64,000 nt of DNA from Planctomycetota bacterium (GTDB lineage: Bacteria; Planctomycetota; B15-G4; JADJEK01), in the NCBI GenBank assembly GCA_044225365.1, contig JBGAIQ010000005.1, positions 21,287 through 85,286 of the forward strand. The letters run 5' to 3'. Position numbers and translations under genes: made by a program. This document shows, piece after piece, positions 22,718 to 64,000 of the stretch. The notes beneath the pieces are model-generated. The model searched no databases and was not told the origin of the DNA. It was given only the letters and a program-made list of their open reading frames with translations. Numbering within the stretch: the stretch's first letter is position 1; every line of letters starts with the position of its first letter.

Positions 22718-23052
22718 GTCCCGTCGCGTCGATGTTCCGTGAAAAGACGATTACATCGTCCGTTTTTCTCGGAGCCGACTCCGCTCGATTCCCCGATTCC
22801 TGACGAGATCATGCGGAGGGATTCCGCGACGCCACGATCGAGAATTGGGAATCTCGCGCGCCCCGATTCGACCCTTTCCACTCGCCTGCGTCGAGTCGAG
22901 CCCATCGCTCATGTCTTTCGGGCAGGAGTTCCCGAAAACGCTCGATCGCGAGCCACCGCCGCGAGCCTGAGGCGTTTCGCACGGGATTTGCGGCCGAAGG
23001 ACTCGACCTGTCCCGCCCTTGTCATCTTCCACCGGTCAAGGAATCGCTCGTG

Positions 23053-28260: not shown

Positions 28261-28572
28261 GTTCCGTCGTCTCTCTACAGCAGATCCCGATCGTAGCGCC
28301 GGCGCTCGCCCGTTCGAAGCGACCGCGACTCACGACGGCGGGTCCATCCTTCATGCATGCATGCGCCGAACGGCCTCCCATCCTGCCAATTTCGCCCGTT
28401 TCTCTCCCCGAAGGTCCGGATCGAAAATTCTTGGCAGCTCGTCGATCGGGAAATCGCATGCACTCGCACACGCCGTTGGAAGCGCCCCGCCCGCGATTCC
28501 ACGCACTCCCGACCGGCCCGCCGCGACGACGCTTCGATCGACCGCGGGCGAAAGCAAGTGAGGACTCACGTC

Positions 28573-48287: not shown

Positions 48288-49196
48288 ATGTTCGCGAAGC
48301 TCGCCGCCTCCCTGAAGAAAACGCGCGACAAGCTCGTTCTCGGCCTCAAGACCATCCTGTCCATCGGCCGCGACCTGGACGACGCTCTGCTCGACGAACT
48401 CGAGGAGACGCTCTACGGCGCCGATCTCGGCAAGGCTGCGGGTGAGATCATCGAGAAGGCGCGTAAGGCCTACAAGCTGCGCGACCTCAAGACGACCGAC
48501 GACGTGTTCGCGTTCTTGAAGAAGGAGATCCGGGCGCGACTCGGCGATCGCTCCGAGATCCGCGTCGCGGCGACGGCCCCCACCGTGATCCTCGTCGTCG
48601 GCGTCAACGGGTCGGGAAAGACGACGTCGATCGCGAAGCTCGCGCGCCACTTCGTGAAGAATGGCAAGAAGGTGGTCGTCGGCGCGGGCGACACCTTCCG
48701 CGCCGCCGCGGTCGAGCAGCTTCACATCTGGTCCGAGCGCGTCGGCTGCGGATTCATCTCCGGCAAATCGGACACCGATCCCGCCGCCGTCGCCTTCGAT
48801 GCAGCCGATGCCGCGGTGAAGCAGAAGGCCGATATCGTGATCATCGATACCGCCGGCCGCCTGCACACGCAGGAGCATCTGATGCGGGAGCTCGAGAAGA
48901 TCTCGCGCGTGCTGAGCAAGCGCATTCCCGGGTCGCCGCACGAGACCCTGCTCGTACTCGACGCCACCACCGGCCAGAACGCGATCCAGCAAGCCGCGCG
49001 CTTCAAGGCGGCCGTCCCCGTCACGGGACTCGTGCTCGCCAAGCTCGACGGTTCCGCGAAGGGAGGCGCGGTCGTCTCGATCCGCGATCAGGTGGGCGTC
49101 CCGGTGAAGTTCGTCGGCGTCGGCGAGCAGTTCGACGATCTCGAGGTTTTCGATCCCGAGAGCTTCACCGAGTCGTTGTTCGAAGCAGGACCCTGA
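48288..49196 (+). CDS. ftsY: Signal recognition particle receptor FtsY (short form, NG domain)
   Basis: An AGGAAG Shine-Dalgarno sits 8 nt upstream of the ATG. G1 VILVVGVNGSGKTTS, DTFRAAA, G3 DTAGR and the TKLDG-type AKLDGSAKGG are all present. Confidence 0.9.
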   Translation: MFAKLAASLKKTRDKLVLGLKTILSIGRDLDDALLDELEETLYGADLGKAAGEIIEKARKAYKLRDLKTTDDVFAFLKKEIRARLGDRSEIRVAATAPTVILVVGVNGSGKTTSIAKLARHFVKNGKKVVVGAGDTFRAAAVEQLHIWSERVGCGFISGKSDTDPAAVAFDAADAAVKQKADIVIIDTAGRLHTQEHLMRELEKISRVLSKRIPGSPHETLLVLDATTGQNAIQQAARFKAAVPVTGLVLAKLDGSAKGGAVVSIRDQVGVPVKFVGVGEQFDDLEVFDPESFTESLFEAGP

Positions 49197-49206
49197 TCGC
49201 GTCGCG

Positions 49207-50607
49207 TCACATCGCGCCGAGGACGATCGTCGAATGGCCCGTCTTCGGCTGTTTGGGATCGAGCAGCGCCTTCACCTTCACCGGCGAATTGCCGCTTTCG
49301 AGTCCGCCGATCGCCACGGTGTAGTCCCCAGGGAGGAACAGCGGCACGCCGAACACGTCGAGTTCTCCGTTCGGCTTCATGAGCGAGTAGTCCGCGAGGT
49401 CGAGCGTCGCGCCGTCGGGGGTGAGCAACGACACGACCGGCAGCAAGGTGCCCTTCTTCAGTTTGATCGTCGCGTCGAGGTGCGCGTCGGGAAGGACGCG
49501 GACCTTGAACTCGAATCCGGTTGCGGCAGCGGGTAGCTCGATCGTCTTCTGCACGCTGCGCGCCGCTTTGGGCAACTTGCGCGACGTCGCGATCGCAACG
49601 GGACCGAAGCCGTGCGAGAAGTTCGACACTCGCACACGGTGGCGACCCGTCGTTCCGAGCGTGACACTGAATGCGCCGCCCTTGCCGAAATCGACGTCCT
49701 TCGCCCACACCACGAGTCCATCCGGATCGACGACCTCGACTCGCGCATGAACCTCTTGACCTGCAGCATTCACGGCGAGGAAGTGCTGCGTGAACTTCAT
49801 CCCCACGACGCCGTCGAACGTCGCATCGAAGACGTCGCCGGCACTCACGGGCACGATCTTGATCTTGTCGCCCGGAGCGAACTTCGGCAGGACGCAGCCG
49901 TCGAGCACGAGATGAAGCCGCTCGTTCCATCGCGCGGCCATCTTCTTCTCGCCGCTCTCGCCGGGATGGAATCCGTCGTAGGTGTCGGTCGTCGCGTCGT
50001 AGCCGGTGAATTGATCGACGAGCAGGACGCGCGATTCGGGGCGATCGACCGCCGCGACGAGCGCGGGGATCTCCGAGTTGAACGCGAGCAGAGTAGGCGG
50101 CACTTGCCCCGACAGCTCGATCGGAACGATCTGCGCGACGAGGATCTTCAAGTTCGGCCGCGCCGCGCGCAGGTTGAGCAGGATCGACTGGAGATTGAGG
50201 AGCGCCGTCGTCACCGGCACCGCGTGGTTGATGTCGGTGTTCCCCATGTGGACGAGCGCGACATCGGGGGTGTACGCGCTCGCGAGCCCTTCGATCGCGA
50301 GACTCATCTCCGCGGTCTGCCAGCCCGAGTGGGCTTCGTGGTCCGGATCGAAGTCGGAGTAGAGCGGAGGGCCGCCGAAGACACCTTGCTGACTGCCCAC
50401 GAAGTCGAACGGGATGCCTTCGTCGTGCAGGGTGTGATCGAGCCAGTAGCGCCAGCTCGCATGACCGGTGTTGGTCTCCGTGATCGAATCGCCCACGGGC
50501 ATGATGCGAACGGGCGCGCCTGCGCCGGCATTCCCCGTTGGCGCGGGGACGAGGGCCGGACCGAGGCAGACGAGGAGGAGTGCGGCGAGCATGGAACTGC
50601 CCCTCAT
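49207..50607 (-). CDS. Secreted SGNH/GDSL hydrolase with a C-terminal beta-rich extension of about 230 aa
   Basis: Signal peptide present. Block I MPVGDSITE, block III GNTD and block V DGFHP are recognisable. The C-terminal half is of unknown function. Confidence 0.65.
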   Translation of the reverse strand: MRGSSMLAALLLVCLGPALVPAPTGNAGAGAPVRIMPVGDSITETNTGHASWRYWLDHTLHDEGIPFDFVGSQQGVFGGPPLYSDFDPDHEAHSGWQTAEMSLAIEGLASAYTPDVALVHMGNTDINHAVPVTTALLNLQSILLNLRAARPNLKILVAQIVPIELSGQVPPTLLAFNSEIPALVAAVDRPESRVLLVDQFTGYDATTDTYDGFHPGESGEKKMAARWNERLHLVLDGCVLPKFAPGDKIKIVPVSAGDVFDATFDGVVGMKFTQHFLAVNAAGQEVHARVEVVDPDGLVVWAKDVDFGKGGAFSVTLGTTGRHRVRVSNFSHGFGPVAIATSRKLPKAARSVQKTIELPAAATGFEFKVRVLPDAHLDATIKLKKGTLLPVVSLLTPDGATLDLADYSLMKPNGELDVFGVPLFLPGDYTVAIGGLESGNSPVKVKALLDPKQPKTGHSTIVLGAM

Positions 50608-50903
50608 CGTTCATCATGTTCGCAAGGAATGCAACTCGATCGTCGCTGCATCTTCGACGTGAACTGGATTCTCGCTCGAACCCGGCTCGAATCCGCGTAC
50701 GATCGACGGTGGAAACCGGGCGGCTGCCCAGCGCGTAAGACTCATCTCCCCTTCTTCCCCTTTTCCCGGAGTCACCGCCCGGATCCATTTTCCGCCCCGC
50801 CGCGCGCCGGCGTGGTCCGCGAATCGAAACGAGTCTTCGGCGAGTTCGGCTCAAGTTCGAGGCCTGAACCGTCGAAAGCGGATCCATCTTCGAGGATTCC
50901 GCA

Positions 50904-51728
50904 GTGCCCGACTCACCTCACCCTTCGACCTTCCTGCATTCGCGCAACGCACGTTCGTTGCCCGTCGGCTGGATCGTCGTGCCCGCGCTCGTCGTCCTCA
51001 TCGGCTTGCCGAAGGCGACGACACCGACTCACGTGATCGCGCTCTTCAGTCTCGGCCTCGGCGTCACCTGCGCCCTGCTCCTCGTGCGGACGATCGTGCT
51101 GCAGCTTCGCAAGCCGTACACCAGTGAGCTCGCGGCGCTCGCGAACGAGATCGAACCGCTCCTCGATCGCTCGACAAGATTGCCTCCCGCGGTGAAGTCC
51201 CCCCGCGCAACGACGCCGCCCATTCGCCGCCGCCTGCCCGCGCGCTCCACGCTCGCCGACCTCCTCGGCCTGCTGCGCGAAGAACACGCGGAGCTCGCGG
51301 CCGCTCAGCACGTCGGGCTCGATTTCCGGATGCACGGCGATCTCGACCACGCTCCACTCGAACTCGAGACGATTCGCTTCGTCCTCGCCCATCTGATCGA
51401 CAACGCGATCCGGCACGGCCACGATGCCGTGACGCCGGGACTCGTGGAACTCCGCGCGAACCCGATCGACGACGGCAAGGCCGTGCGGTTCACGGTCAGC
51501 GACGACGGTCATGGCGTCTCCCCCGCTTCGCGCGCGAGCCTGTTCGGAGAGATGCCCTCGACTCGCCGTCCAGCACCGAGCTTGAAGAAGCCGGGCCTGA
51601 TGCGGTGTCGCGAGCTCGCCGAAGCGGTTCAGGGGACGATCGCCTGCGAGCCTCGTACTCCGCGCGGCACTCGATTCGTCTTCGACATCCCGGTGAAGGT
51701 CGGGCGGCCGCAATTCCTCGTCACGTGA
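50904..51728 (+). CDS. Small membrane protein with HATPase_c-like domain (histidine-kinase-like)
   Basis: 274 aa with a GTG start in the track. Two TM segments are followed by HLIDNAIRHG (N-box-like) and TVSDDGHGV (G1-like). The H-box is not clear. Confidence 0.5.
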   Translation: MPDSPHPSTFLHSRNARSLPVGWIVVPALVVLIGLPKATTPTHVIALFSLGLGVTCALLLVRTIVLQLRKPYTSELAALANEIEPLLDRSTRLPPAVKSPRATTPPIRRRLPARSTLADLLGLLREEHAELAAAQHVGLDFRMHGDLDHAPLELETIRFVLAHLIDNAIRHGHDAVTPGLVELRANPIDDGKAVRFTVSDDGHGVSPASRASLFGEMPSTRRPAPSLKKPGLMRCRELAEAVQGTIACEPRTPRGTRFVFDIPVKVGRPQFLVT

Positions 51729-52551
51729 CGGGGGCGGCCCTCGAACTCCGCGCGGCGAACTCGATGTGACTCGCCCGACCGAGCAACTCCCGCTCGCTGC
51801 CGATCCGTTCCTCGAGTGCGAGCAAGCGACGCTTCGTTTCGCCGTCGTCGAGCAGCGATCGATTCTTGTGCATGGGGAGCACCGGCCTCCCGATCATGCT
51901 GACCACCGACAGGCCCGCATCGCTCGCCAGTCGTTCGATCTCGGCGGCCTTGAACATCTTGGTCGGGAAGCGCTCGTCCTTGTCCTTCGCGAGCCATTCG
52001 CTGCGGCCATCCTTCATGAATCGCTCCAGGGCCGCGACGTCGCCGCGCTCCAGCATGTGCTCGAGACCCGCGTACCGTTGGTCCACCGAGGCGAGGAACA
52101 CGCCGCCATCGACGAGCAGCCGCTTCACGTTGCGAAGCGCGAGCGCGACGTTCGGAACGAACGACAGCACATCGCCGAGTGCGATCACGAGGGAGTAGCG
52201 CGCTTCGCCGAGCATCGCGGGTAGATCACGATCGTCGAGGCTGGCCCGCACGAATCGACACTCCGCCGTGAGCCCGGCCTCCGCGTAATTCTTGCGCGCC
52301 TGTTCGAGCATGCCCTCGGAGAGGTCGAGGAAGTCGGTCGCGTAACCGCTCTTCGCGAGCTTCACGCCGAAGTGGCCCGGCCCGCATCCGGCATCGAGGA
52401 CGTTCGCCCGCGCTTGAATCGGCAGGAAGCGCTTGAGATGTCGCCACGTCAACTCGCGGCAGAACGCGAGGTACGAATCGCCCTCGTGCTGCTCCTCGTA
52501 ACGGGGAGCCACTCGATCGTGATAACGTTCGTTGGAACTGCGCCGGGACAT
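51721..52551 (-). CDS. Class I SAM-dependent methyltransferase
   Basis: Starts at an internal ATG of track ORF 51721..52962 (MSRRSSNERYHDRVA...). Motif I VLDAGCGPGHFG and the post-I acidic residue FLDLS are present. Confidence 0.75.
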   Translation of the reverse strand: MSRRSSNERYHDRVAPRYEEQHEGDSYLAFCRELTWRHLKRFLPIQARANVLDAGCGPGHFGVKLAKSGYATDFLDLSEGMLEQARKNYAEAGLTAECRFVRASLDDRDLPAMLGEARYSLVIALGDVLSFVPNVALALRNVKRLLVDGGVFLASVDQRYAGLEHMLERGDVAALERFMKDGRSEWLAKDKDERFPTKMFKAAEIERLASDAGLSVVSMIGRPVLPMHKNRSLLDDGETKRRLLALEERIGSERELLGRASHIEFAARSSRAAPVT

Positions 52552-52654
52552 CACCGAATCGTACGCCCGGTTCGTCGTCCGATCGTCTGTGTTTTTTCGA
52601 TGACTCGAAGCCCCAGGAGCGGGCGCGCCGTGCGGCGCTCGTAGACTGCTCGCG

Positions 52655-54841
52655 ATGATACCGTTCCTCCTCGTCCTCCTGGTCCTCGCGGTCGATCCCC
52701 ATGGGTTCGAGCCGCCCGCGTTGAAGCGAGCGTTGCTCCTCACCGCGGGGCCGCTGGCGTTGCTGATGCTCCTCCCGACGGGCGGGCTGCGACGGGTCGC
52801 CACGACGCCGCTCGGCTTCGGCCTCTCGGCCCTCGCACTGCTCTTCGCTTGGTCGTGCCTCGGGACGGTGATCGCCGGCGTGCCACTCGCGATCGGCGGA
52901 AAGGGCGTCGGCCTCTTGCTCCTCCTGCTCGCGTTCGCCGCGCTCGCCCGCGAGAACGCCACGAAGAACGCCTTCCGGCTCGGCGACAGCCTGCTCGCGC
53001 TCGGGCTCGTCTGCGCGGTCTACGCGATCCTGCAGCGAATCGGCTTCGATCCGCTCTTCCTCAATCCCGAGAAGAAGTCGGTCGCATTCTTCGGCAACAC
53101 GAATCGTGCGGCGGAATTCATCGCACCCCTCGCGCCGCTGGCGCTTGCGTTCCGTACTTCGCGCGGCGGCACACTCGCCGGGCTCGCCACGCTCGCGCTT
53201 CCGCTGCTCGTCGCGGCGACGATCCTCACGAACAGCCGCGCAGGTGCGATCGCCGCGGGAGTGGGCCTGCTCGCCGTTCTCGTGTTCACGTCCGATCCTT
53301 TGCGCCGCAAAGTCGATGTCGCGCTCATCGCGGCCGGCCTGTTGCTTCCGTTGCTGCTCGGTGGAATCGAGAACTACCGCTTCAAGAGCGTCGCCGAGAG
53401 CGAAGCGAGCATCGTCTCCCCCGACTATTCACCGAATCGTCAGCGCGAACTCCTCCTCGAGGCATCGCTGAGGATGAGCAAGGACTCGCCCCTCTTCGGA
53501 AAAGGAGCCGGGAACTTCCGATACGCGTTCCCTCGGTTTCGCGATCCCGAAGAAGCACGCATGCTCACCCTGGGCGGAGCGCTCTCGTCGGCGGAGGATC
53601 CGCACAACGAGTTCCTCCTGCTCGCGACCGAGTCCGGCATCCCGGCCGCGGCGCTCTTCGTGATCTTCCTGCTCAGCGCATTGCTCTCGGTGCGCACGTC
53701 CTCGCTGTGGCCGGCCGGCCATCCGTTGCGTGCCGCGGCGCCCGGCTACGCGGGGGCGCTGATCGCGCTGTGCGTGATGGCGGCCTTTCGATCGATCCTC
53801 GATCATGCCCCGGTCGCGCTCATGACGGCCGCGCTCGGTGGCAGCTTGCTCGCGTGTCGCGAGATCGATCCAGCATCGCGGCGCTCTGGGCCCCTGCTCG
53901 TCGTCCTTCCGATCTGGCTCGTTGCCATCGCGTTCCTCGGCGTACGTGCTCTCGCGTCCGAGATCTGCCTCGGTCTCGCCGCGCGCGACCTGAGCGCGAG
54001 CCGCCTCGTTCCTGCGATCGACGACCTCTCGAACGCGCGCATGTTCGACGGAACCAATCTCGCCGCAATGCAGCTCGAAGCCACATTGACCGAAGGCGCC
54101 GCGCGGCTCGATCCCAAACGCACCGATGCCGCGATCGCCGCGCGCCGCCGCATCCTCGCCCTCGACCCGAGCCACGTCACCTCGCACTTCCGGCTCGCAG
54201 CGCGAATGTACGAACGGGGCGATTTCGGCACGGCGCGCTCGCACCTGCGCTACGGCCTCTCCGTGCTGGGTGAGAACCGCAAGGGATGGAGCGAGAAGGG
54301 CGTCACCCGACTCCTCGAACAGAAGGAATTCCGCGCCGCCGCCATCTTCGAGAGACTGCGGCGCGTCGGCGGGGAAGGCACGCTCGGCGAATTGCGGAGC
54401 GAGGCCGATACCAACGCCAAGTCGCCGCAGCGCGATCGACAGGTCTTCGCCGCGGAACTCCTCGCGCAGTTCCTCGAGTTGCGCCCTGCCGACCCCGACG
54501 CGGCATACGATCTCGCCGAACTCTGCTCCAAACTCGAGGACAAGGCGCGAGCCGACTCGTACTACGAACGATCCCATCTCTGCCGAGCCGCGCAGGCACT
54601 GGAGCACAAGGACGTCGTCCTCGCCAAGCGCTCGCTCGCGAGCGCCCAGCACTATGGAGAGTCGTTCGACCTCTCCGTGCTGCTCTCCCTCGTCGCGCTC
54701 CTCGAGAAGGACTCGCTTCCGCTCGAGAAGCTCGAGCACGAGGCAAGAGGACAGAGGGTGTCGCGTCCGATCCACGAAGCCCTGGCACCTCTCGCCAAGA
54801 TGCCGGAGTTCGCCGACGCGCTGAAGCGCATCGGATCCTGA
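52655..54841 (+). CDS. O-antigen ligase (Wzy_C) family polytopic membrane protein with a C-terminal TPR-like helical region
   Basis: 728 aa with an ATG start. It has more than 10 TM helices, a central ...TNSRAGAIAAG... loop characteristic of O-antigen ligase/Wzy_C, and a soluble helical-repeat tail of about 300 aa. Confidence 0.7.
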   Translation: MIPFLLVLLVLAVDPHGFEPPALKRALLLTAGPLALLMLLPTGGLRRVATTPLGFGLSALALLFAWSCLGTVIAGVPLAIGGKGVGLLLLLLAFAALARENATKNAFRLGDSLLALGLVCAVYAILQRIGFDPLFLNPEKKSVAFFGNTNRAAEFIAPLAPLALAFRTSRGGTLAGLATLALPLLVAATILTNSRAGAIAAGVGLLAVLVFTSDPLRRKVDVALIAAGLLLPLLLGGIENYRFKSVAESEASIVSPDYSPNRQRELLLEASLRMSKDSPLFGKGAGNFRYAFPRFRDPEEARMLTLGGALSSAEDPHNEFLLLATESGIPAAALFVIFLLSALLSVRTSSLWPAGHPLRAAAPGYAGALIALCVMAAFRSILDHAPVALMTAALGGSLLACREIDPASRRSGPLLVVLPIWLVAIAFLGVRALASEICLGLAARDLSASRLVPAIDDLSNARMFDGTNLAAMQLEATLTEGAARLDPKRTDAAIAARRRILALDPSHVTSHFRLAARMYERGDFGTARSHLRYGLSVLGENRKGWSEKGVTRLLEQKEFRAAAIFERLRRVGGEGTLGELRSEADTNAKSPQRDRQVFAAELLAQFLELRPADPDAAYDLAELCSKLEDKARADSYYERSHLCRAAQALEHKDVVLAKRSLASAQHYGESFDLSVLLSLVALLEKDSLPLEKLEHEARGQRVSRPIHEALAPLAKMPEFADALKRIGS

Positions 54842-54851
54842 TCGCGCGCGA

Positions 54852-57800
54852 TCACTCGATGCCGTACTTCGAGATCAGAGTCTGCAGCCAGCGGCGTGTG
54901 ATGCCGAGGCGCTCCGCGGCCTTCCCGCGATTGCCCTCGCTTGCCCGAAGGGCGGCGACCACGAGCTCCTTCTCGTAGTTCGCGACGGCATCCTTCAGCG
55001 AGGTCTCGCCGGGTAGCGCCGATTCGCGCACCGGCGCGACGACCGCAGGAAGCGGCGTGCGCCGATAGTCCGGGGGAAGGTCTTGCGCGTCGATGGGATC
55101 GTGCGGCGACGTGAGCACCAGCGCGCGAACGACGGCCTCGAGCTCACGCACGTTGCCGGGGAAGGGTTGGGCCGAGAGATGTGCGAGCGCTGCGTCGGTG
55201 AATCCGCGCGGCTTGTCCCCCGAACGGCGCGCGATCTCGCTCGAGAAGTGCGCGACGAGCAACGGCACGTCGCCGCGCCGATCGCGTAGCGGCGGTACGT
55301 CGATCGGAATCACTCGCAGGCGCCAGTAGAGGTCCTCGCGGAATCGTCCTGCAGCCACCCACTCGACGAGCGGCCGATTCGTCGCCGCAACGAGTCGGAA
55401 GTTCACGCGCTGCGGTTTGTTCGAACCGAGCGGCCAAACCTCGCCGTCCTGCAACACACGCAGGAGCTTCGCTTGCATCGCGAGCGGCATGTCCGCGATC
55501 TCGTCGAGGAACAACGTGCCTTGATCGGCTGCGACGACGAGTCCCTCGTGATCGCGCGTGGCGCCCGTGAACGATCCCTTGCGGTAGCCGAACAGCTCGG
55601 CCTCGACGAGAGTCTCGGGCAGCGAAGCGCAGTTCACCGCGATGAATCGCTTGCGCCGCCGATAGGACCGATCGTGGAGCGAGCGCGCGATCAACTCCTT
55701 GCCCGTGCCGGCTTCGCCGAGCACCAGGACGGAGGCGTCGGAATCGGCGACGCGTTCAACGAGATCGAGGATGCCGAGCAACCGCGGATCCTGCGTCACC
55801 AACGGACTCGCAACACCCTTCGCCTCGAGTTCACGGCGCACTCGATCGAGATCGTCGCGAGCGGTCTCGAGTTCGCGCGTCCTCGCCTTCACGTCGGCGA
55901 GCAAGCGTGTGTTCAGCACCTCGATCTCCCCGCGGAGGCGTGCCCGATCGAGGACGATCGCGGCCTGCTCGGCGAGCGCCTGCGTCACGTTGCGGGCGGA
56001 GTCGTCGAAGCGATCGATCCGCTCCGGGTCATCGACGTAGATCGCTCCGATCACCTCGCCGCGCGCCTTGAGGGGCGCGCAGAGCACGGAGAGGAGGTCG
56101 AGGCGCGAGATGCTCTGGTACTCCTTGAATCGCTCATCGGTCCGCGCCTCCGAGGTGACGATCGTCTCTCCCGATGCGAGTGTTCGCTCGACGATCGAGC
56201 GGGAGAGTTGCATCGCGGGATCCTCGATGTCCTGTTGCCGCAGATTGCGCGCAGCCTCGAAGCGAAAGCTCGACTCGAAGCGCGTGACGACGAATCCGCG
56301 GCTCGCACCGAGCAAGTCGAGCGCGGTGTCGAGGATTCGGGTGAGGACATCGGCGACGGAGTCGGCCTCGTTGATCCACCGACTCGCTTCCAACACTTGG
56401 CGCAACTGACGATTCTCGCGCAGCAGATCGCGCTCGACGGCGGTGCCCTCGAGGGCCGCATCGAGCGCGGCGACGAGTTCGCGCGCGATCGCGATCCGGA
56501 GCCGGTGGCCGCAAGCAAGCGCATGGCGCTGCGCGGCGCGAGCCGCATCGCGCCCATCTCGGGCGAATTCGAAGGAGCCGTTCGCGAGGTCGAGCCGTAC
56601 GGCACGCGCGAAGGCGATGAGCACCGCGGCTTTCGTTGCGTCGTCGCTCGCCGTCTCGAGCGCGGAGAGGAGAGCGCAGCGTGCGGCATCGCGGCGCAGC
56701 AGCACCAACGCAGCCGCGCGGATGCCCGTGGCTTCGGCGAGCGCCTTGCGTCGACCCGCCGCTCGGGCGAGGCGACGCGCGAGGCGGGCGCGGCGGAGCG
56801 CACCGATGGGATCGGAGCGAAAGAGCTGCTGCTCGGCGACGAGTGATTCGGCCGTCGCGCGTTCACCCTGGCCGCCGGCGCGATCGGCGAGGAGGACGGC
56901 CCGCCGCGCGACACCCCACGCCGTCGCGATCTCCCCGCGATCGCGGGCCGCTTCTGCGATCGCGATCAGCACCGAGAGTCGGGCCGAGGCACGCTCCGGT
57001 CCCGCCGAGAGCTGGAGCGACTCGCGCACGGCCGCCCGGGTCCCGTCGATGTCGCCTAGGGTCGCGCGCGCCCGAATCAGTTCCGCCGCCGAGAGCGCGG
57101 CACCGGGATGAGCGTTCACGAACTTGCGATGCTCGAGGCTCTGCTCGAGACACTTCACGGCCGCTTCAGGATCGCCGAGGAAGAGGCGCGCGGCACCTTC
57201 GCCGGCGAGGGCCCACCCCAGGCCGCGACGATTCCCGGCTCGCGAGAACAGGATCGTCGCTCGTTGCAATGACTGGAACGCGCGCCGTGCATCCCCCGAC
57301 TCGAGTCGCGCGAGACCGAGTCGAGTGAGGACGTCCGGCAACAATCGTCGGTCGCTCGATCTCTCGAGCAGGTTCACCGCGCGTCGAAGCCGTCGCTCCG
57401 CGAGCGCGGCGCGCCCGGCCTCGAGATCGATCACGGCGAGCGTCGAATCGAAGTGCGCGGCACGCGCGAGGCGGCCGAGGCGACGCGACAATCGGCGCGC
57501 TTCGACGAACGCCTCGTGCGTGCGTCGCACGTCACCGGCCCGATCGGCGAGCGGACCTGCGACCGCGGCGATCTCGAGTCGCGCGGAGAGATCGTCGATT
57601 CCTTGGCGCAACGACCAGAGGGCGTTCACCTCGTTGCGCGCCTCGGCCGTCTTGCCTGCGGCATTCGCGGCCCAGGCGCGAGCCGCACGCAACCGGAACA
57701 CGTCGTTCCCGCGCGCCCGCAAGAGTGCCCGATCGAGCCGGTCGACGGCATCGGTTGCGCGCCCCATCCGCTCGAGCAGTTGCGCGTGCTCGACGGCGAG

Positions 57801-59969
57801 TTGGAATTGCGTCCCGTCGGGCGGGAGCTGCTCTGCCTGCGAGAAAGAGGTTTCCGCCTCGACGAGGCGTCCGGCCATCGCCAGCGCCCTCGCCCGTAGC
57901 GACTCGCGCACGTACGCCCGTTCGGGTCGCATGGGCTCACCGTCGAGCATCGAAAGAGCACGAAGCGCGAGCGTCGGGTTCACCTCGACGAGCGCGGCGC
58001 GCGCGCTCGCGAGAGCGTAGTGCCGTGGAGCCTTCCTGCCCGCAAACGCCAGCGACTGCGCGACCGACGCAAGCGTCGTGGCGTCACGACTCCGTCGCAA
58101 GAGAGCGCGCGCGATCGCCCGCGCGGCCTGCGCATCGTTCGGGCTCGCCACCTTGGAGGCGAGCGTCACGGCGATCGCCGAGTCGAGCACTCCCGTCTCG
58201 TGAGGCGGCTTGAAACCGCGCAACACGAGTAGACGCGTCGCGCGGGCCAACATCGCCAGGACGGCCGGCCCGAAGAGCCCGGTTGCCTCGACGAGCACCG
58301 GGATCGGCAGGGAGACCCGAACCTGGGCGAGGAGGACGAAGACGGATCGCGACTCGCTCGGCAATTCGTCGAGATAGGCCGTGAAGGAGTTGCGACCTCG
58401 CGAGTCGACGGCGGAATCCTCGATCACGGCGGCGTGCTCGGCGTCGTCGAGTCGTGCCAGATCCGCGACGATGCCGCTCTCCCGATCGAGCAATCCGCCG
58501 CGCCGCGCCAATTCGCGCACGATCGACCGCATGCGCCGTGGCGAACCGTCGGAGCGCCGCACGAGCTCCGCCGCGAGCGCCTCCGGAGCGAGGAGGCGCG
58601 GGATCGTCACCTCGAGGATCGCGAGGACGTCCGACTCGGCGATCGGCTGGATCATGAATTCATCGAACTCGACCACGAAGTCGACGGGCAATGCGAGACG
58701 CGCCGCGTCGACGTCGCCACCGAGTGCGATACCTCCCGCGACCTCGCCGCGAGCGAGCGCGGCCGCGAAGACCGCGAGCGCTTCGATCGCCGATCGACTC
58801 GCGTTCTCGACATCGTCGAGGATCGCGATCACTCCGGGCATCTTCTCGCGCGCGTTCGCGATCTCGGCGATCGCTCGAAGCGGCGAGTCGACTTCGGCGA
58901 GATCGAGCGTGAGGATCCCGCGAGCCCTCGCGAGTTCGCGCAGCCGCAACAAGTGCGTCGTTCGGCCGCTGCCAAGGCGCCCCCCGATGACCAGCGTGCG
59001 AGGACTCTCGCTCGAATCCTCGATCCCGGACGCGACGCCGCCGAGCCAACGCGCGAGGCGCTCCTCCGAAGTGCGGGCGAGGACGACTCGCCAATTCTCC
59101 TTCGTGCTCGTTGCATCGACGTCGCCCGTCCCGAGCAAGCGGCGGTGCACGGCTCGCGCGTCGAGGGTGCGGAGCGCTGGATCCGGCGCCAGGAGCCGCA
59201 AGAGGAGCTCCTCGAGGAAGGGTGCGGAACAGCGTTCGGCGACGCGTCGCGCCACGTCCGCGGGAACTCCCGCGAGGATCGCGCGGACCAAAGAAGTCGC
59301 GTCGGATCCGTCGGTCGACGGAGGGACGAAGAAGAGCGGTTCGCCGAGCACGACCTCGACCAGCAGGCTGCCGAACGCGTAGAGATCCGATGCGGCAGTC
59401 GGCGCCGCGGAGAGCAATCGTTCGGGGGCGAGGTATTGCAATGTGCCGTGACGCGCTCGCTCGGGATCGGCGAAGGCGGGGTCGATCAGCACGCCTCGTC
59501 CGCTCGGCGTGACGATCACGTTTTCCGGCTTGAGATCCCCGTGCGCGAGTTCGAGCGAGTGCATCGCGAAGAGGCCGAGAAGGACGTCGCCGAGCACCGC
59601 GAAAGCCTTCTCACGAGAGAGCGCAGGCAGTGCGGCTCGCAGGTCGCGGCCTTCGACGTAATCGCAGACGACGTACGAAACCCCCGTCGCGGGGTCGGTC
59701 TCGATCGCGAGCATCGTCGCGAGATTCTCGTGGCGGAAGCCGAGGAACGAGACGAGAGCCTCGACGTTCGCGAAGTCGGCACCGAGGCCAGCGGAATCGC
59801 TGCGATCACGGAGCAGTGCGCGATCGAAGCGTGGCGGCCGATCCGCTCGGCGCGGCAAGGGTCGCAGCACTCGTCGCGCGTTGCCGCTCGCCGTGTCCCG
59901 CACGAGCCATGGCGTTCTGGGCGCGACGACGGAGGCGAGCGCCCGCTCGACGCGGTAGCGTCCGAGCAA
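54852..59969 (-). CDS. Giant multidomain regulator: degenerate Ser/Thr kinase, P-loop NTPase (STAND/PknK-like), TPR, GAF, sigma-54 activator AAA+, Fis HTH. The start is uncertain: the track ORF extends to 60068 and overlaps fur; a TTG at 59969 is proposed.
   Basis: N-terminal kinase fold (LGRYRV..., HGDLKPENV, YLAPE). P-loop LVIGGRLGSGRTTHLL. About 600 aa of TPR-like repeats. GAF-like stretch ...GFVVTRFESSFRFEAARNL...GAIYVDD... Sigma-54 module GEAGTGKE, GSFTGA and LFLDEIAD, with an Arg finger. C-terminal HTH ...AAERLGITRRWLQTLISKYGI. Confidence 0.8.
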   Translation of the reverse strand: MLGRYRVERALASVVAPRTPWLVRDTASGNARRVLRPLPRRADRPPRFDRALLRDRSDSAGLGADFANVEALVSFLGFRHENLATMLAIETDPATGVSYVVCDYVEGRDLRAALPALSREKAFAVLGDVLLGLFAMHSLELAHGDLKPENVIVTPSGRGVLIDPAFADPERARHGTLQYLAPERLLSAAPTAASDLYAFGSLLVEVVLGEPLFFVPPSTDGSDATSLVRAILAGVPADVARRVAERCSAPFLEELLLRLLAPDPALRTLDARAVHRRLLGTGDVDATSTKENWRVVLARTSEERLARWLGGVASGIEDSSESPRTLVIGGRLGSGRTTHLLRLRELARARGILTLDLAEVDSPLRAIAEIANAREKMPGVIAILDDVENASRSAIEALAVFAAALARGEVAGGIALGGDVDAARLALPVDFVVEFDEFMIQPIAESDVLAILEVTIPRLLAPEALAAELVRRSDGSPRRMRSIVRELARRGGLLDRESGIVADLARLDDAEHAAVIEDSAVDSRGRNSFTAYLDELPSESRSVFVLLAQVRVSLPIPVLVEATGLFGPAVLAMLARATRLLVLRGFKPPHETGVLDSAIAVTLASKVASPNDAQAARAIARALLRRSRDATTLASVAQSLAFAGRKAPRHYALASARAALVEVNPTLALRALSMLDGEPMRPERAYVRESLRARALAMAGRLVEAETSFSQAEQLPPDGTQFQLAVEHAQLLERMGRATDAVDRLDRALLRARGNDVFRLRAARAWAANAAGKTAEARNEVNALWSLRQGIDDLSARLEIAAVAGPLADRAGDVRRTHEAFVEARRLSRRLGRLARAAHFDSTLAVIDLEAGRAALAERRLRRAVNLLERSSDRRLLPDVLTRLGLARLESGDARRAFQSLQRATILFSRAGNRRGLGWALAGEGAARLFLGDPEAAVKCLEQSLEHRKFVNAHPGAALSAAELIRARATLGDIDGTRAAVRESLQLSAGPERASARLSVLIAIAEAARDRGEIATAWGVARRAVLLADRAGGQGERATAESLVAEQQLFRSDPIGALRRARLARRLARAAGRRKALAEATGIRAAALVLLRRDAARCALLSALETASDDATKAAVLIAFARAVRLDLANGSFEFARDGRDAARAAQRHALACGHRLRIAIARELVAALDAALEGTAVERDLLRENRQLRQVLEASRWINEADSVADVLTRILDTALDLLGASRGFVVTRFESSFRFEAARNLRQQDIEDPAMQLSRSIVERTLASGETIVTSEARTDERFKEYQSISRLDLLSVLCAPLKARGEVIGAIYVDDPERIDRFDDSARNVTQALAEQAAIVLDRARLRGEIEVLNTRLLADVKARTRELETARDDLDRVRRELEAKGVASPLVTQDPRLLGILDLVERVADSDASVLVLGEAGTGKELIARSLHDRSYRRRKRFIAVNCASLPETLVEAELFGYRKGSFTGATRDHEGLVVAADQGTLFLDEIADMPLAMQAKLLRVLQDGEVWPLGSNKPQRVNFRLVAATNRPLVEWVAAGRFREDLYWRLRVIPIDVPPLRDRRGDVPLLVAHFSSEIARRSGDKPRGFTDAALAHLSAQPFPGNVRELEAVVRALVLTSPHDPIDAQDLPPDYRRTPLPAVVAPVRESALPGETSLKDAVANYEKELVVAALRASEGNRGKAAERLGITRRWLQTLISKYGIE

Positions 59970-59985
59970 GAGCTTCGCATCGCGA

Positions 59986-60465
59986 TCAGCCAGACTTCTC
60001 CTCCGATTTGCCGCACGCCGCGCAGAGGCCGAACAGCTTGAGCGTGTGCGAGAGCACTCGGAAGCCATGACGCTTCGCCGCCTGCTCCTGATGCGCCTCG
60101 ATCTCGGGATCCGAGAATTCCACGATGTCGCCGCATCGCAGACAGATCATGTGATCGTGGTGCTCGCGACCGTGGACCGGCTCGTAGAACTTGGCCTCGC
60201 GAGCGCCGATCTCCAACTCGTCGAGGAAGTTCGAGTCGACGAGCAACTTCAGCGTGCGATAGACCGTCGCCTTGCTGACGTACATGCGCTCGCGCTTCAG
60301 GACTTGATAGAGATCCTCGGCGGAGAAGTGCTTCGGCATCGAGAACGCGCGCTTCACGATCTTGAGCCGCTGCGCGGTGTGCTTCAGCTTGTTCTCGCGG
60401 AGGAACCGCTCCAGCAGTTCGTCGACCTTGGCGGCCTTCGCGCGTTTGGTCTCGCTCTGGATCAC
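59986..60465 (-). CDS. fur: Fur family transcriptional regulator (ferric/zinc uptake regulator-like)
   Basis: 159 aa. The GTG start overlaps the purD stop (GTGA). The DNA-binding helix ...KATVYRTLKLL and the metal sites HHDHMICLRCG and CAACG are present. Confidence 0.8.
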   Translation of the reverse strand: MIQSETKRAKAAKVDELLERFLRENKLKHTAQRLKIVKRAFSMPKHFSAEDLYQVLKRERMYVSKATVYRTLKLLVDSNFLDELEIGAREAKFYEPVHGREHHDHMICLRCGDIVEFSDPEIEAHQEQAAKRHGFRVLSHTLKLFGLCAACGKSEEKSG

Positions 60466-61742
60466 GCCGAAGCCTCGTAGTCCTTGCGCCCGATGTCGGT
60501 GCGATAGAACGCCTTCTCGAAACGAATCCGGGCAACCCTGCGGTAGGCCTTCTCACAGGCCTGGCGAAGGTCTGTCCCGAGTGCGGAGACGGTGATCACT
60601 CGCCCGCCGGCCGTTACGACGCTTCCGTGATGCAGGGCCGTACCCGCGTGGAAGACCGATACGCCCTCTTCGGCTTCGTCGCGGAGGCCTTCGATCGGGT
60701 AACCCTTCTCGAAGCTGCCGGGATAACCTCCCGAGGCGATCACGACGGCGCAGCAAGGCCGCGGGTCCCACTCGAGTCCCTTCGACTGGTCGAGCTTCCC
60801 ATCGACCGCGAGCGAGAGCAACTCGAGCAGATCGGTCCGAAGCCGGGGAAGGATCGCCTGCGCCTCGGGATCGCCGAGCCGCACGTTGAATTCGAGCACT
60901 TTCGGGCCCGCCTTCGTCAGCATCAATCCCGCGTAGAGGAAGCCGACGAAGCGGTGTCCTTCCCGAGCGAGAGCGTGAACCACCGGGACGAAGACCTGCG
61001 ACTCGACCTGCCGGAGGATCGCCGGAGTGATGTTGCTCGCGGGACAGACGGCGCCCATTCCGCCGGTGTTCGGGCCGCGGTCGAAGTCGAACGCCTGCTT
61101 GTGATCGCGCGCTGCCTCGAGGGTGGCGATCGTGCGGCCGTCGACGATCGCGATCACAGATGCCTCACTGCCCTGCAGGAACTCCTCGATGACGAGGCGC
61201 GCCCCGGCCTCTCCGAAATCTTGCGTCACCATGAAGCGATCGATCGCCGCGAGCGCCTCGTTGCGATCGGCCGCGATGATGACGCCCTTGCCCGCCGCGA
61301 GGCCGTCGGCCTTCAACACGATCGGGAAATCGACGATGGCGTCGATGTACGACCGCGCAGCGTTCGCATCCTGGAAGATGCGGAAGCCGCCGGTCGGGAC
61401 GTGGTACTTGCGGCATAGTTCCTTGGTGAAGGCCTTACTGCCTTCGAGGCGAGCCGCGCCGGCGACGGGGCCGAAGATCTTGAGGCCGCTCGCATGGAAC
61501 GAGTCGGCGATGCCGAGTACGAGGGGCGCCTCGGGTCCCACGACCGTGAGGTCGATCGCCTGCGCCTTCGCGAACGCGGTGAGGCCCGCGACGTCGTCGA
61601 TCTTGATGTCGACGGTCTCGGCGATCTCGGACATGCCGACGTTGCCCGGTGCGACGAACAACTTCGAGAGCCGAGGAGAACGCTGGATGGCTGCGCAGAG
61701 CGCGTGTTCGCGCCCGCCGCTGCCGATGACGAGTACTCGCAT
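60462..61742 (-). CDS. purD: Phosphoribosylamine--glycine ligase
   Basis: Starts at an internal ATG of track ORF 60462..61970 (MRVLVIGSGGREHAL...), giving a full-length PurD of about 427 aa with an ATP-grasp fold. Confidence 0.9.
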   Translation of the reverse strand: MRVLVIGSGGREHALCAAIQRSPRLSKLFVAPGNVGMSEIAETVDIKIDDVAGLTAFAKAQAIDLTVVGPEAPLVLGIADSFHASGLKIFGPVAGAARLEGSKAFTKELCRKYHVPTGGFRIFQDANAARSYIDAIVDFPIVLKADGLAAGKGVIIAADRNEALAAIDRFMVTQDFGEAGARLVIEEFLQGSEASVIAIVDGRTIATLEAARDHKQAFDFDRGPNTGGMGAVCPASNITPAILRQVESQVFVPVVHALAREGHRFVGFLYAGLMLTKAGPKVLEFNVRLGDPEAQAILPRLRTDLLELLSLAVDGKLDQSKGLEWDPRPCCAVVIASGGYPGSFEKGYPIEGLRDEAEEGVSVFHAGTALHHGSVVTAGGRVITVSALGTDLRQACEKAYRRVARIRFEKAFYRTDIGRKDYEASA

Positions 61743-61918
61743 CAAAACCCCGAACACTGCCATTTTGCGGCGCCGTCGCCGCTCGTGAGCCGGCAAAAAG
61801 TACCAGCATCGCGAACCCCGGCAAGGACCGCGCCGAAAAAACGGCGACAGATTCGCGCGCGCCGGAGACGACATCGTAGACTCGATCGTGTCGAGCCCAT
61901 TCTGTCCGTTCGAATCCG

Positions 61919-63187
61919 ATGATCGAAGCCTCGAGCCTCCTCTGCGCAGCCCTCGCGCTCGCGCCCGCACCCCCCGTCGAATTCGCCGGGAGTCGTCTCT
62001 ACGCTGCGAGCGTCGGAGGCGATCGAGTCGTCGGATTGGACAACGATGGCGTCACGGCGCAGACGATCCTCGATGCCGGGCTCGTGGATCCCCGCGGCAT
62101 CGCGTTCGGTCCCGACGGCAAGCTCTACGTCGCATCGGGAGACCACGTCCTGAAGTTCGGAGGCAATGGCGCACTCGAGGACACGCTCGGTGCCGCCGCG
62201 GGTCTCACGGGCGCACGCGGCATCGCGATCGGGCCGAATGGCGACCTGTTCGTCACGTCGCTCACTCAGATCCTCGAACTGCGGCGCGATGGGACCCTGG
62301 TGCGTTCGATCGGCTCGGGCGACAACCTGCACGTGCCGGTCGGCCTCTGCTTCTCCGGTGAAGGCCACCTCTTCGTCACGCTCGCCGGGGACAACGCGAT
62401 CGCGGAATACGATGCGAGCTTCGACCGCATCCACGTCTCCACGTTGACCGAACTCGCGATTCCGATGGGGATCACGATCGCTCCGAACGGAGTCCGCTAC
62501 GTCTCGTCGTTCTTCAATGCGTCCGTCCTCGCGCTCGACGCGACCGGTGCGGTCGTCGGCGTCTTCACCGACGCCGCACTGCTCTTTCCCTCCGGCATCG
62601 CAGTCGGCCCCAACGGCAATCTCTTCGTCTCGACGTTCTTCGGCAACACGATCGTCGAGCTCACGCCGGTCGGCGCGAAGGTCCGCGAGATCTCGCTCCC
62701 CACCGGAGCGACGAACCCCGAGGGCATCGCGTTCGCGCCCTACCGCTGGAAGGGCAAGCTCAAGGGCCGACTCGTCGTCGATCCATCGATCGCGAAGAAC
62801 GTCAACGAGAACGTCTACCTGGCGTACGCTCCGGGTTCGCGCACCCTGATGATCGATCTCGTCGACAAGACCTCGTCCAAGGATCTGGCGTCGACACTCG
62901 GCGTCACCGGCATGGCGTTCTACGGCTTCGAAACGTTCGAGACGCAGGACGCGAAGGCACGACGCGTCCAGGGACTCGAACTCGCACTGTTCTCCGCCGC
63001 GCCCGCGGACCCACCGGGAGCGGGTGCACTCACCCAGAGTTCGATCGTGCTCGACTTCACGGGCAAGGCAGCGCCCTTCGGTTCATCGCCCGGGTTCTTC
63101 CCGAAGAGCGCGACCGGAACGCTCACCCGCAGCAACTCGAAGAGTTCGCTTCGAGGAACGATCGTCACGTCGAGCGCGCTCCACTGA
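61919..63187 (+). CDS. Secreted NHL/SMP-30-like six-bladed beta-propeller protein
   Basis: 422 aa with an ATG start and a signal peptide. Repeated blades of the form PxGIAxGPxGxL[FY]V (DPRGIAFGPDGKLYVAS, ARGIAIGPNGDLFVTS, PSGIAVGPNGNLFVST...) are present. Confidence 0.6.
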   Translation: MIEASSLLCAALALAPAPPVEFAGSRLYAASVGGDRVVGLDNDGVTAQTILDAGLVDPRGIAFGPDGKLYVASGDHVLKFGGNGALEDTLGAAAGLTGARGIAIGPNGDLFVTSLTQILELRRDGTLVRSIGSGDNLHVPVGLCFSGEGHLFVTLAGDNAIAEYDASFDRIHVSTLTELAIPMGITIAPNGVRYVSSFFNASVLALDATGAVVGVFTDAALLFPSGIAVGPNGNLFVSTFFGNTIVELTPVGAKVREISLPTGATNPEGIAFAPYRWKGKLKGRLVVDPSIAKNVNENVYLAYAPGSRTLMIDLVDKTSSKDLASTLGVTGMAFYGFETFETQDAKARRVQGLELALFSAAPADPPGAGALTQSSIVLDFTGKAAPFGSSPGFFPKSATGTLTRSNSKSSLRGTIVTSSALH

Positions 63188-63411
63188 GCGCCACGTTTCG
63201 CGCCCGCTCGCTGGCGATCACGCGCGCGGCTTTTCCGTGGCTTTTCGATGCAGTCCCCTCGACATCGCGATATGGTGTCTCGCGTTCAGGAACGCTGCGC
63301 AACCACACACCGACGGCCGTCCAACGCTCGAGCTTCGCCCGGCGATGAACGCGGGAGCGACCCGCATCGATCCGGCTCCACTGTCGACTCGAGGGATGGT
63401 CTGGGGTAGCC

Positions 63412-64000
63412 ATGCAGAGCGAGAGTGACGCGGTGACCGACAGCGTCGCGCCGATCGATTCGATGAATCCCGTTCGTTCCGATTCACCGCCGCAGGATCT
63501 CGGGCGCGACGTCTCCAGGTCGACCGCGCTGCCGATCGCGCCGATCCTCGCGCTCCTCGCCGGGGTCTTCAGCGTCGCGTCGGTGGGCGCGTCGATCCTC
63601 GCCGTGGCGGCGACGCGCGAGCTCTCCTTCCTGCAGTCGACACAAGTCATCGGCGCACTCGCTCTGCTCGCGCTCGCACTGCTCGCACGACGGCGATCGT
63701 CGCAACCCCTGCCGATCGGCCGCCTCGGACTCTGGCTCGCTGCGACCGCCCTCACGATGGCTGGAGCCGTCGAACTGCCGAGTTGGCCGTCGATCGATAC
63801 CTTCGGGATCGGAGTCACCTTCCCGTTCCTCGTTCTGCTCGCCCTCCTCACGTACTTCGTCCTCGAACGGGACACCGACGGCGCGACATCGGGCATGATC
63901 GCGTGCGTGATCTTCGCGGCCTTCGGCGGACCGCTCTTCCTGCGCGACGGCGATGCCTTCCACGCGGTGCATCTGCTGCTCGCCATCGCCGGCGTCGGAA
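63412..64000 (+). CDS. Polytopic membrane protein, 3'-truncated at the window edge
   Basis: An ATG at about 63412 opens a frame with no stop before the window ends. Strong GC3 bias and several hydrophobic helices are present (PIAPILALLAGVFSVASVGASILAVAA...). It is not in the ORF track because it lacks a stop. Confidence 0.4.
   Translation, partial: MQSESDAVTDSVAPIDSMNPVRSDSPPQDLGRDVSRSTALPIAPILALLAGVFSVASVGASILAVAATRELSFLQSTQVIGALALLALALLARRRSSQPLPIGRLGLWLAATALTMAGAVELPSWPSIDTFGIGVTFPFLVLLALLTYFVLERDTDGATSGMIACVIFAAFGGPLFLRDGDAFHAVHLLLAIAGVG

Follow-up and report, generated by a model that had tools for sequence, protein, structure and literature searches.

A predicted Hanks-type pseudokinase at the head of a giant sigma-54 activator from a Planctomycetota bacterium

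The giant sigma-54 activator encoded on the minus strand of a 64,000-nucleotide stretch of DNA from a Planctomycetota bacterium (GenBank assembly GCA_044225365.1, contig JBGAIQ010000005.1, positions 21,287 to 85,286), hereafter referred to as the window, begins with a kinase-like domain that is predicted to be a pseudokinase. The domain covers residues 34-329 (59081..59969, minus strand) of a protein of 1738 residues counted from the ATG at 60068, the product of a 5.2-kb open reading frame (54852..60068, minus strand) whose true start lies somewhere within 59969..60068; the position and the strand given to the domain in a first-pass annotation of the same DNA are correct. A folded Hanks-type domain has probably lost phosphotransfer at the base of a small bacterial lineage and been retained from then on as a regulatory module without catalytic activity. 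In terms of sequence, a pseudokinase is defined by the lack of at least one of three residues, namely the lysine of the VAIK motif, the aspartate of the HRD motif and the aspartate of the DFG motif (PMC4718504; 10.1101/2025.01.12.632604). Under this definition, the designation of probable pseudokinase already put forward in the first-pass annotation is supported, the VAIK lysine being absent in every register and in all orthologs, that is, throughout a clade of seven representatives comprising the window protein (database version P0034), P0035-P0039 and P0083.

The four substituted strings quoted in the first-pass annotation, ALASVVAP, RRVLRPL (residues 65-71), HGD and DPA, are all found in the translation together with YLAPE. 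All on the minus strand, the motifs are distributed as follows. The glycine-loop position is degenerate, since ALASVVAP (residues 43-50, 59919..59942) contains no glycine, and the β3 strand ARRVLRP (residues 64-70, 59859..59879), delineated from the AlphaFold2 model and from alignment, contains no lysine. The catalytic loop HGDLKPEN (residues 176-183, 59520..59543) keeps Asp178, Lys180 and Asn183, the DFG position reads DPA (residues 196-198, 59475..59483), with phenylalanine replaced by proline and glycine by alanine next to a preserved metal-binding Asp196, and the APE motif (residues 214-216, 59421..59429) closes YLAPE at Glu216, in agreement with its reported retention. With Asp178, Lys180, Asn183, Asp196 and Glu216 in place, the domain has not lost every catalytic hallmark as had been claimed, and from the triad formed by the β3 lysine, the HRD aspartate and the DFG aspartate, the lysine alone is missing in the window protein. 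The supposed loss of the Mg-binding DFG holds for the phenylalanine and the glycine, but not for the metal-binding aspartate, which is both kept and invariant. The change of HRD into HGD, also counted as a loss, is found in relatives of the same architecture with intact GxGxxG, lysine and DFG (P0042, P0057 and L012); it was consequently rejected as a catalytic loss and is an ancestral non-RD trait that the broader family shares.

Between β3 and αC, the window protein bears an insertion of about 26-30 residues (residues 72-101, 59766..59855, minus strand) that is absent from the six orthologs, rich in arginine, aspartate and proline, and predicted to be disordered, with values of the AlphaFold2 per-residue confidence score (pLDDT) below 50. 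The insertion also holds a second β3-like string, RALLRDR, and its origin by internal duplication of β3 (ARRVLRP / DRALLRD) was considered and rejected, no repeat being found at the DNA level.

The clade emerged from a query with residues 1-1230, which retrieved the identical protein P0034 and the five orthologs P0035-P0039 (35-44% identical in their best local BLASTP alignments), and from a profile run exhaustively against 1.84 billion cluster representatives, which added P0083 and yielded no further full-length member among its 150 best matches. Queried alone, the kinase domain returned generic kinases among the matches listed, the orthologs surfacing only with residues 1-1230, and a scan of genome contigs gave distant relatives only, at most 48% identical and mostly over the sigma-54 part. 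The clade is known from metagenome-assembled genomes (MAGs), the Planctomycetota label being carried by those of P0038 and of its cluster-mate P0212. At an overall identity of about 35-48%, all seven proteins share a β3 strand of the form (A/G/T)xxV(L/F)R devoid of lysine, an invariant HGD and an invariant catalytic-loop asparagine. The DFG position consists of DP followed by A, S, G, I, V or R, so that phenylalanine is replaced by proline in seven of seven proteins and glycine is lost from six. D178, N183, D196 and E216 are reported as invariant across orthologs and outgroups, the APE motif itself reading AHE in P0038. Other positions vary: the catalytic-loop lysine (K/S/K/K/S/A/K) is lost from three of the seven, the αC glutamate (E/S/D/E/G/G/A), a hallmark which the first-pass annotation had not listed, is unconserved, and the glycine loop ranges from the partial LGDG and LGAG of P0038 and P0039 to the complete absence of glycine in the window protein. 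Because the same changes recur in all seven representatives, the substitution pattern appears to be beyond chance. Moreover, because distant proteins of the same architecture (P0042, P0057, L005, L006 and L012) possess GxGxxG, lysine and DFG, P0040 having DFS, the loss of the lysine and the conversion of DFG into DP are derived characters of a single clade, maintained ever since, and not signs of decay.

The residue equivalent to the missing lysine is either R69 or R66, the window protein having an arginine at both positions. R69 is designated by a MAFFT L-INS-i alignment with intact relatives and by HMMER on P0035 ('VLR' facing 'AIK'), and R66 by hhalign, run against a profile built from 14 canonical domains, as well as by HMMER on P0037 ('ARR-VLRP' facing 'AIK-LLRP'). 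R69 is favoured on the basis of the aligned sequences, since the 10-12 residues that separate it from the β2 aspartate in the clade match the 10-11 residues separating that aspartate from the lysine in intact relatives, as compared to 7-9 residues for R66, and since its column is invariant in all seven proteins, the R66 column being R/C/V/R/R/R/L. No alternative register supplies a lysine, the observation named beforehand as capable of overturning the assignment: both β3 columns are lysine-free in seven of seven, and within residues 1-340 of the window protein lysine occurs only as K32 (ahead of β1), K154, K180 and K323, with none in residues 33-153. Similarly, no conserved glycine-loop lysine of the WNK style is found in the clade, a lysine occurring there only in P0035. 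The whole regulator counts 27 lysines for 226 arginines, and the β3 change was accordingly considered as a mere by-product of an arginine-rich composition; composition alone does not explain it, however, because the lysines of the sigma-54 Walker A motif (K1457) and of the catalytic loop (K180) are kept.

The structure-based comparison recommended in the first-pass annotation was carried out with an AlphaFold2 model built on the six-sequence ortholog alignment. The model (predicted template-modelling score 0.77, mean pLDDT 74.6) is bilobal and shows its elements in canonical order, with β1 at residues 38-43, β2 at 54-58, β3 at 64-70, a disordered segment at 74-101, αC at 96-106 and a canonical C-terminal lobe (C-lobe). 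Foldseek against the PDB placed Staphylococcus aureus Stk1 first, followed by PknB and PknA from Mycobacterium tuberculosis, with a probability of 1.00 and template-modelling scores of 0.67-0.77 normalised to the target. The modelled N-terminal domain is thus predicted to adopt a genuine Hanks-type kinase fold. Pfam Pkinase (PF00069) matches the protein at 64.6 bits for a gathering cutoff of 31.7, but over residues 111-302 and positions 55-253 of the 263 of the profile only, and phmmer against PDB sequences matches StkP, Stk1, PknB and PKA over C-lobe residues. Neither method aligns the N-terminal lobe (N-lobe), which is too divergent to be recognised by the Pkinase profile.

Mean pairwise identities over the seven proteins amount to 0.39 for the N-lobe, 0.43 for the C-lobe, 0.33 for the STAND region, 0.40 for the TPR region, 0.66 for the GAF domain and 0.64 for the sigma-54 AAA+ domain. 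The kinase-like domain (0.39-0.43) is thus conserved about as much as the other sensor regions (0.33-0.40), and continued constraint, not free decay, is what the sequences indicate for it. The ratio of kinase to sigma-54 identity, 0.67 in the clade versus 0.76 in the intact outgroups, shows overlapping ranges and does not separate catalytic from structural constraint, so that it is not decisive.

Beyond the kinase-like domain, the regulator comprises, in this order, a STAND-like P-loop and winged-helix region, a TPR region, a GAF domain, a sigma-54 AAA+ domain and an HTH_8 domain, all on the minus strand. The STAND-like NTPase and winged-helix region (residues 340-620, 58209..59051) is identified from its motifs and from sub-threshold Pfam matches, which consist of a weak nSTAND_NTPase5 match at residues 350-428 of the regulator and, across the clade, of nSTAND_NTPase5 in five of the seven orthologs, AAA_22 in three and AAA_16 in two. 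Its Walker A motif, GRLGSGRTT, departs from GxxxxGK(S/T) by a change of lysine into arginine at R369 (58962-58964), which also occurs in P0037 and P0083; GSGKS and GAGKS are intact in P0038 and P0039 and the motif is fully degenerate in P0035 and P0036, the Walker A lysine being thus lost from five of the seven orthologs. The Walker B motif reads ILDDVE, and the winged-helix matches are ArsR/SmtB-like and weak (E 0.001-0.07). The regulator may therefore bear two consecutive pseudoenzyme modules, the kinase-like domain and the STAND-like P-loop. A Kyte-Doolittle scan of the regulator, made in place of a dedicated transmembrane predictor, found no clean transmembrane segment, the highest 19-residue window (1.93, residues 575-593) containing arginine and lying within the winged-helix region. 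The helical TPR region (residues 621-1230, 56379..58208) includes a Pfam TPR_12 match just over the cutoff (residues 914-981, 33.6 versus 30.1 bits).

The GAF domain (residues 1236-1375, 55944..56363) is matched by Pfam over residues 1240-1373 at 3.9e-17, the sigma-54 interaction AAA+ domain with its lid (residues 1424-1671, 55056..55799) by Sigma54_activat over residues 1424-1589 (219 bits, 3.5e-65) and AAA_lid_14 over residues 1595-1671 (6.6e-20), and the Fis-type DNA-binding domain (residues 1696-1728, 54885..54983) by HTH_8 at 6.9e-8 (32.5 bits for a cutoff of 22). The AAA+ domain displays the Walker A motif GEAGTGKE with K1457, GSFTGA at the GAFTGA loop and the Walker B motif LFLDEI, all kept in all orthologs; judged from these motifs, the output domain appears catalytically intact, and both GAF and AAA+ are highly conserved.

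In the proposed mechanism, the pseudokinase would head a chain of modules within a single polypeptide, leading through the STAND-like and winged-helix region, the TPR region, the GAF domain and the sigma-54 AAA+ domain to the HTH domain. The N-terminal 1,230 residues would act as a non-catalytic input platform, either conformational or protein-binding, and this input would pass through the GAF domain and the linker to allow or prevent the assembly of AAA+ hexamers, thereby controlling the activation of sigma-54 promoters. Regulatory domains control AAA+ oligomerisation in the enhancer-binding proteins NtrC1, DctD, NorR and NifA. The role suggested in the first-pass annotation, that of a scaffold or sensor which is itself regulated and gates the AAA+ activator, may reasonably be adopted. 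As in KSR2, the pocket of the pseudokinase may still bind a nucleotide through Arg69, Asn183 and Asp196. The absence of phosphotransfer put forward earlier accordingly stands as a prediction and not as a demonstration, the Asp/Asn/Asp set being retained as in the ATP-Mg-binding KSR2.

Several points weigh against a non-catalytic module. The invariance of Asp178, Asn183 and Asp196 is equally expected from residual catalysis or from Mg-nucleotide binding. An arginine can partly replace the β3 lysine, and KSR2, which has a β3 arginine and keeps the Asp/Asn/Asp set, binds ATP with one Mg and is reportedly weakly active (PMC4718504). The comparison of the clade relies on seven sequences, which is few, and the methods disagree on whether R69 or R66 is the lysine equivalent. 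On the output side, which is deduced from domain content, a search of the 64-kb window for TGGCAC-N5-TTGCW with up to two mismatches gave 13 matches for 12.4 expected and revealed no sigma-54 promoter in the neighbourhood of the locus, none of the matches falling within 52-64 kb.

An atypical but active kinase, in which Arg69 or Arg66 together with Asp178, Asn183 and Asp196 would ensure low-level or substrate-specific phosphotransfer, is possible but rather unlikely; an autophosphorylation switching the downstream STAND, GAF and AAA+ modules would be one possibility of this kind. Non-RD kinases of the HGD type need no activation-loop phosphorylation, and such an enzyme would account for the invariance of D178, N183, D196 and E216 in the seven orthologs and the outgroups as well as for that of R69 in the clade, KSR2 offering a precedent with its β3 arginine, its Asp/Asn/Asp set, its binding of ATP-Mg and its reported activity (PMC4718504). 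The missing glycine loop of the window protein and the proline which replaces the DFG phenylalanine, a residue of the regulatory spine, in all seven proteins nevertheless argue against efficient phosphotransfer. The αC glutamate is unconserved, the catalytic-loop lysine is lost from three of the seven proteins, the alternative-register column offers no lysine, and the sequence features that have best predicted activity are an intact glycine loop and VAIK motif (PMC4718504). That the domain is instead an evolutionary relic, decaying and functionless, and simply carried along by the functional GAF-sigma-54 part, seems improbable. An N-lobe unrecognisable to Pfam, a disordered insertion unique to the window protein, a neighbouring STAND P-loop which is also degenerate, and an identity of about 0.4 for the N-terminal regions versus 0.65 for GAF and AAA+ would fit with such a decay, but the domain remains in frame and full-length in all seven proteins at 35-48% identity, with many invariant positions, a confident AlphaFold2 fold and an identity relative to the sigma-54 domain near the value of the intact outgroups.

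The N-lobe could finally be an annotation artefact, the true start being M119 and the translated product containing a C-lobe fragment only, but this is very improbable. The database version P0034, a call of NCBI, does start at M119 (59712-59714) and omits the N-lobe, and P0035 (L085:3-380) is likewise called from inside β3, at 'MLRPL'. In these two orthologs out of seven, automatic calling dropped the N-lobe for want of an ATG downstream of the fur stop. The sole upstream ATG, at 60068, lies inside the upstream fur gene, with an overlap of 83 nucleotides. The reading frame is nonetheless open upstream of M119 and encodes LLGRYRVER...PWLV...ARRVLRPL, which aligns residue-for-residue with the ATG-initiated N-termini of P0036-P0039 and P0083, and also with the sequence that lies upstream, in the same open frame, at the P0035 locus. 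In addition, plausible non-ATG starts occur close to the fur stop (fur ends at 59986), namely a CTG at 59993 (L26) preceded by GGAGGAG at a distance of 4 nucleotides, and a TTG at 59969 (L34), 16 nucleotides past the stop. From these alignments, the N-lobe appears to belong to the protein, with an exact start to be chosen among ATG 60068, CTG 59993 and TTG 59969.

With respect to known systems, the predicted pseudokinase is closest in its description to the CP1 family, defined in the 2025 atlas of bacterial Ser/Thr kinases (O'Boyle, Kannan et al., 10.1101/2025.01.12.632604) and its companion review (PMC12599244). The cytosolic kinase domains of CP1 are in every case linked with a predicted ATPase of the COG3899 type, FhlA-type or PAS domains being frequent further partners. 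Sequence analysis, so far the only approach applied to this family, found the VAIK lysine absent in 34%, the HRD aspartate in 37% and the DFG aspartate in 17% of CP1, with KILR at β3 in one Leptospira member, and, as regards the role of these proteins, 'almost nothing is known' (10.1101/2025.01.12.632604; PMC12599244). The regulator similarly associates a kinase-like domain with a P-loop region and an FhlA-type GAF/sigma-54/HTH module, and PF13191 (AAA_16) is carried by more distant relatives of the same architecture. It differs from CP1 in three respects: CP1 has been described mainly from cyanobacteria and proteobacteria, whereas the regulator clade consists of MAGs with P0038 and P0212 as labelled Planctomycetota; the HRD and DFG aspartates are both invariant in the regulator clade; and the atlas reports no family-specific insertions, unlike the β3-αC insertion of the window protein. 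The regulator thus represents a kind of predicted pseudokinase that bioinformatic surveys have already recorded, the likeness to CP1 being drawn from the description of its architecture. Another point of comparison is offered by KSR1 and KSR2, which work mainly as allosteric scaffolds (PMC4718504). The regulator resembles them by a β3 arginine combined with preserved equivalents of the HRD aspartate, the asparagine and the DFG aspartate, a likeness that holds only if R69 is the lysine equivalent and that is restricted to the configuration of the active site, KSR proteins being eukaryotic and occurring in an unrelated domain context. KSR keeps the glycine-rich loop and DFG.

Regulators such as PknK from M. 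tuberculosis and the MalT/AfsR-type STAND proteins combine a kinase domain, a P-loop NTPase and a TPR-like sensor in one transcription-linked polypeptide. The regulator shares with PknK the kinase-ATPase-TPR series, to which the JGI label 'PknK' on P0036 owes its origin and nothing more. PknK, however, is an active kinase not known to have a sigma-54 module, in contrast to the regulator clade, which lost the kinase lysine and, in five of the seven proteins, the STAND Walker A lysine. With NifA, FhlA and NorR, the regulator has in common a GAF domain, a coiled linker, an AAA+ domain with a GAFTGA loop and an HTH_8 domain. The best NCBIfam matches over residues 1220-1738 are NifA and NorR, at scores far under the equivalog cutoffs (336.6 versus 528.85 bits for the NifA equivalog TIGR01817). 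These activators differ from the regulator, which bears a pseudokinase/STAND/TPR N-terminal extension of 1,230 residues.

The genomic surroundings of the regulator are conserved. The Logan contig L081 reproduces 48723..64000 of the window with one mismatch, and the gene order, NHL/Vgb_lyase, purD, fur, regulator, convergent Wzy_C and methyltransferase, recurs in all orthologous loci. The fur-family regulator gene (59986..60465, minus strand), directly upstream of the regulator gene and co-directional with it, is a conserved neighbour and possibly co-transcribed; its NCBIfam Fur/PerR-type matches all remain under the curated cutoffs, and Pfam FUR is annotated both here and in the orthologous loci. 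The purD gene (60462-61763, minus strand) overlaps fur by 4 nucleotides, and in L084 the two are called as one fused product of 584 residues. Convergent with the regulator, a gene for an O-antigen ligase/polymerase-like Wzy_C protein of 728 residues (52655..54841, plus strand) is present in all orthologous loci. A second large Wzy_C gene starts at about 63412 (plus strand) and extends beyond the end of the window, as extrapolated from the coordinates of L081, and large Wzy_C genes border the regulator both here and at most of the orthologous loci. The fur gene and the Wzy_C-type envelope-polysaccharide genes are candidate targets of the regulator only; sigma-54 is reportedly tied to the cell exterior (PMC3162934), and the candidacy of Wzy_C is in line with this view. 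The rpoN gene does not occur in the 64-kb window.

The 64 kb contain only two kinase-like domains, that of the regulator and that of a Ser/Thr kinase-TPR gene at 25561..28260 (minus strand). The latter had been suggested as a trans partner: it is intact, as stated, with GGMGSV, VAVK, HRDLKPSN and DFG, but its only link to the regulator is the shared window; about 27 kb separates it from the regulator gene, and it falls outside the syntenic block that the orthologs have in common. Its neighbours are an open reading frame of 804 residues with nine CxxCH motifs, a multihaem cytochrome (23050-25464, plus strand), convergent with it and about 100 bp from its 3' end, and, past its 5' end on the opposite strand, an open reading frame of 959 residues rich in FG-GAP/VCBS-like 'DxDGDGxxD' repeats (28357-31236, plus strand). 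The profile of the clade also pulled out giant proteins of 1,426-6,172 residues (P0067-P0072) with 4-10 tandem kinase-like domains, most of which are devoid of one or more catalytic residues.

A more elaborate and quite tentative reading considers the regulator as a lineage-specific input made of two pseudoenzymes, in which the kinase-like and STAND modules would have turned from catalysts into nucleotide-occupancy or conformational switches that together gate a sigma-54 activator of the Wzy_C genes, with a Fur-type metal or redox regulator acting upstream. The double change of lysine into arginine, at β3 of the kinase-like domain and in the STAND Walker A, occurs in the window protein and in two of the six orthologs. 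Surveys of deposited proteins will under-count or mis-describe such domains, since gene calling removed the N-lobe from two of the seven orthologs. Although bacterial Hanks-type pseudokinases are catalogued, a function has been demonstrated for almost none of them. The regulator represents a clean case for their study, with losses fixed in an orthologous group and outgroups of the same architecture that look intact, and its sigma-54-dependent output, which is easily assayed, would allow the contribution of a pseudokinase to a transcription activator to be tested directly. If the reading as two successive pseudoenzymes proves true, a bacterial Hanks-type pseudokinase would for the first time be assigned a mechanistic role in the control of transcription.

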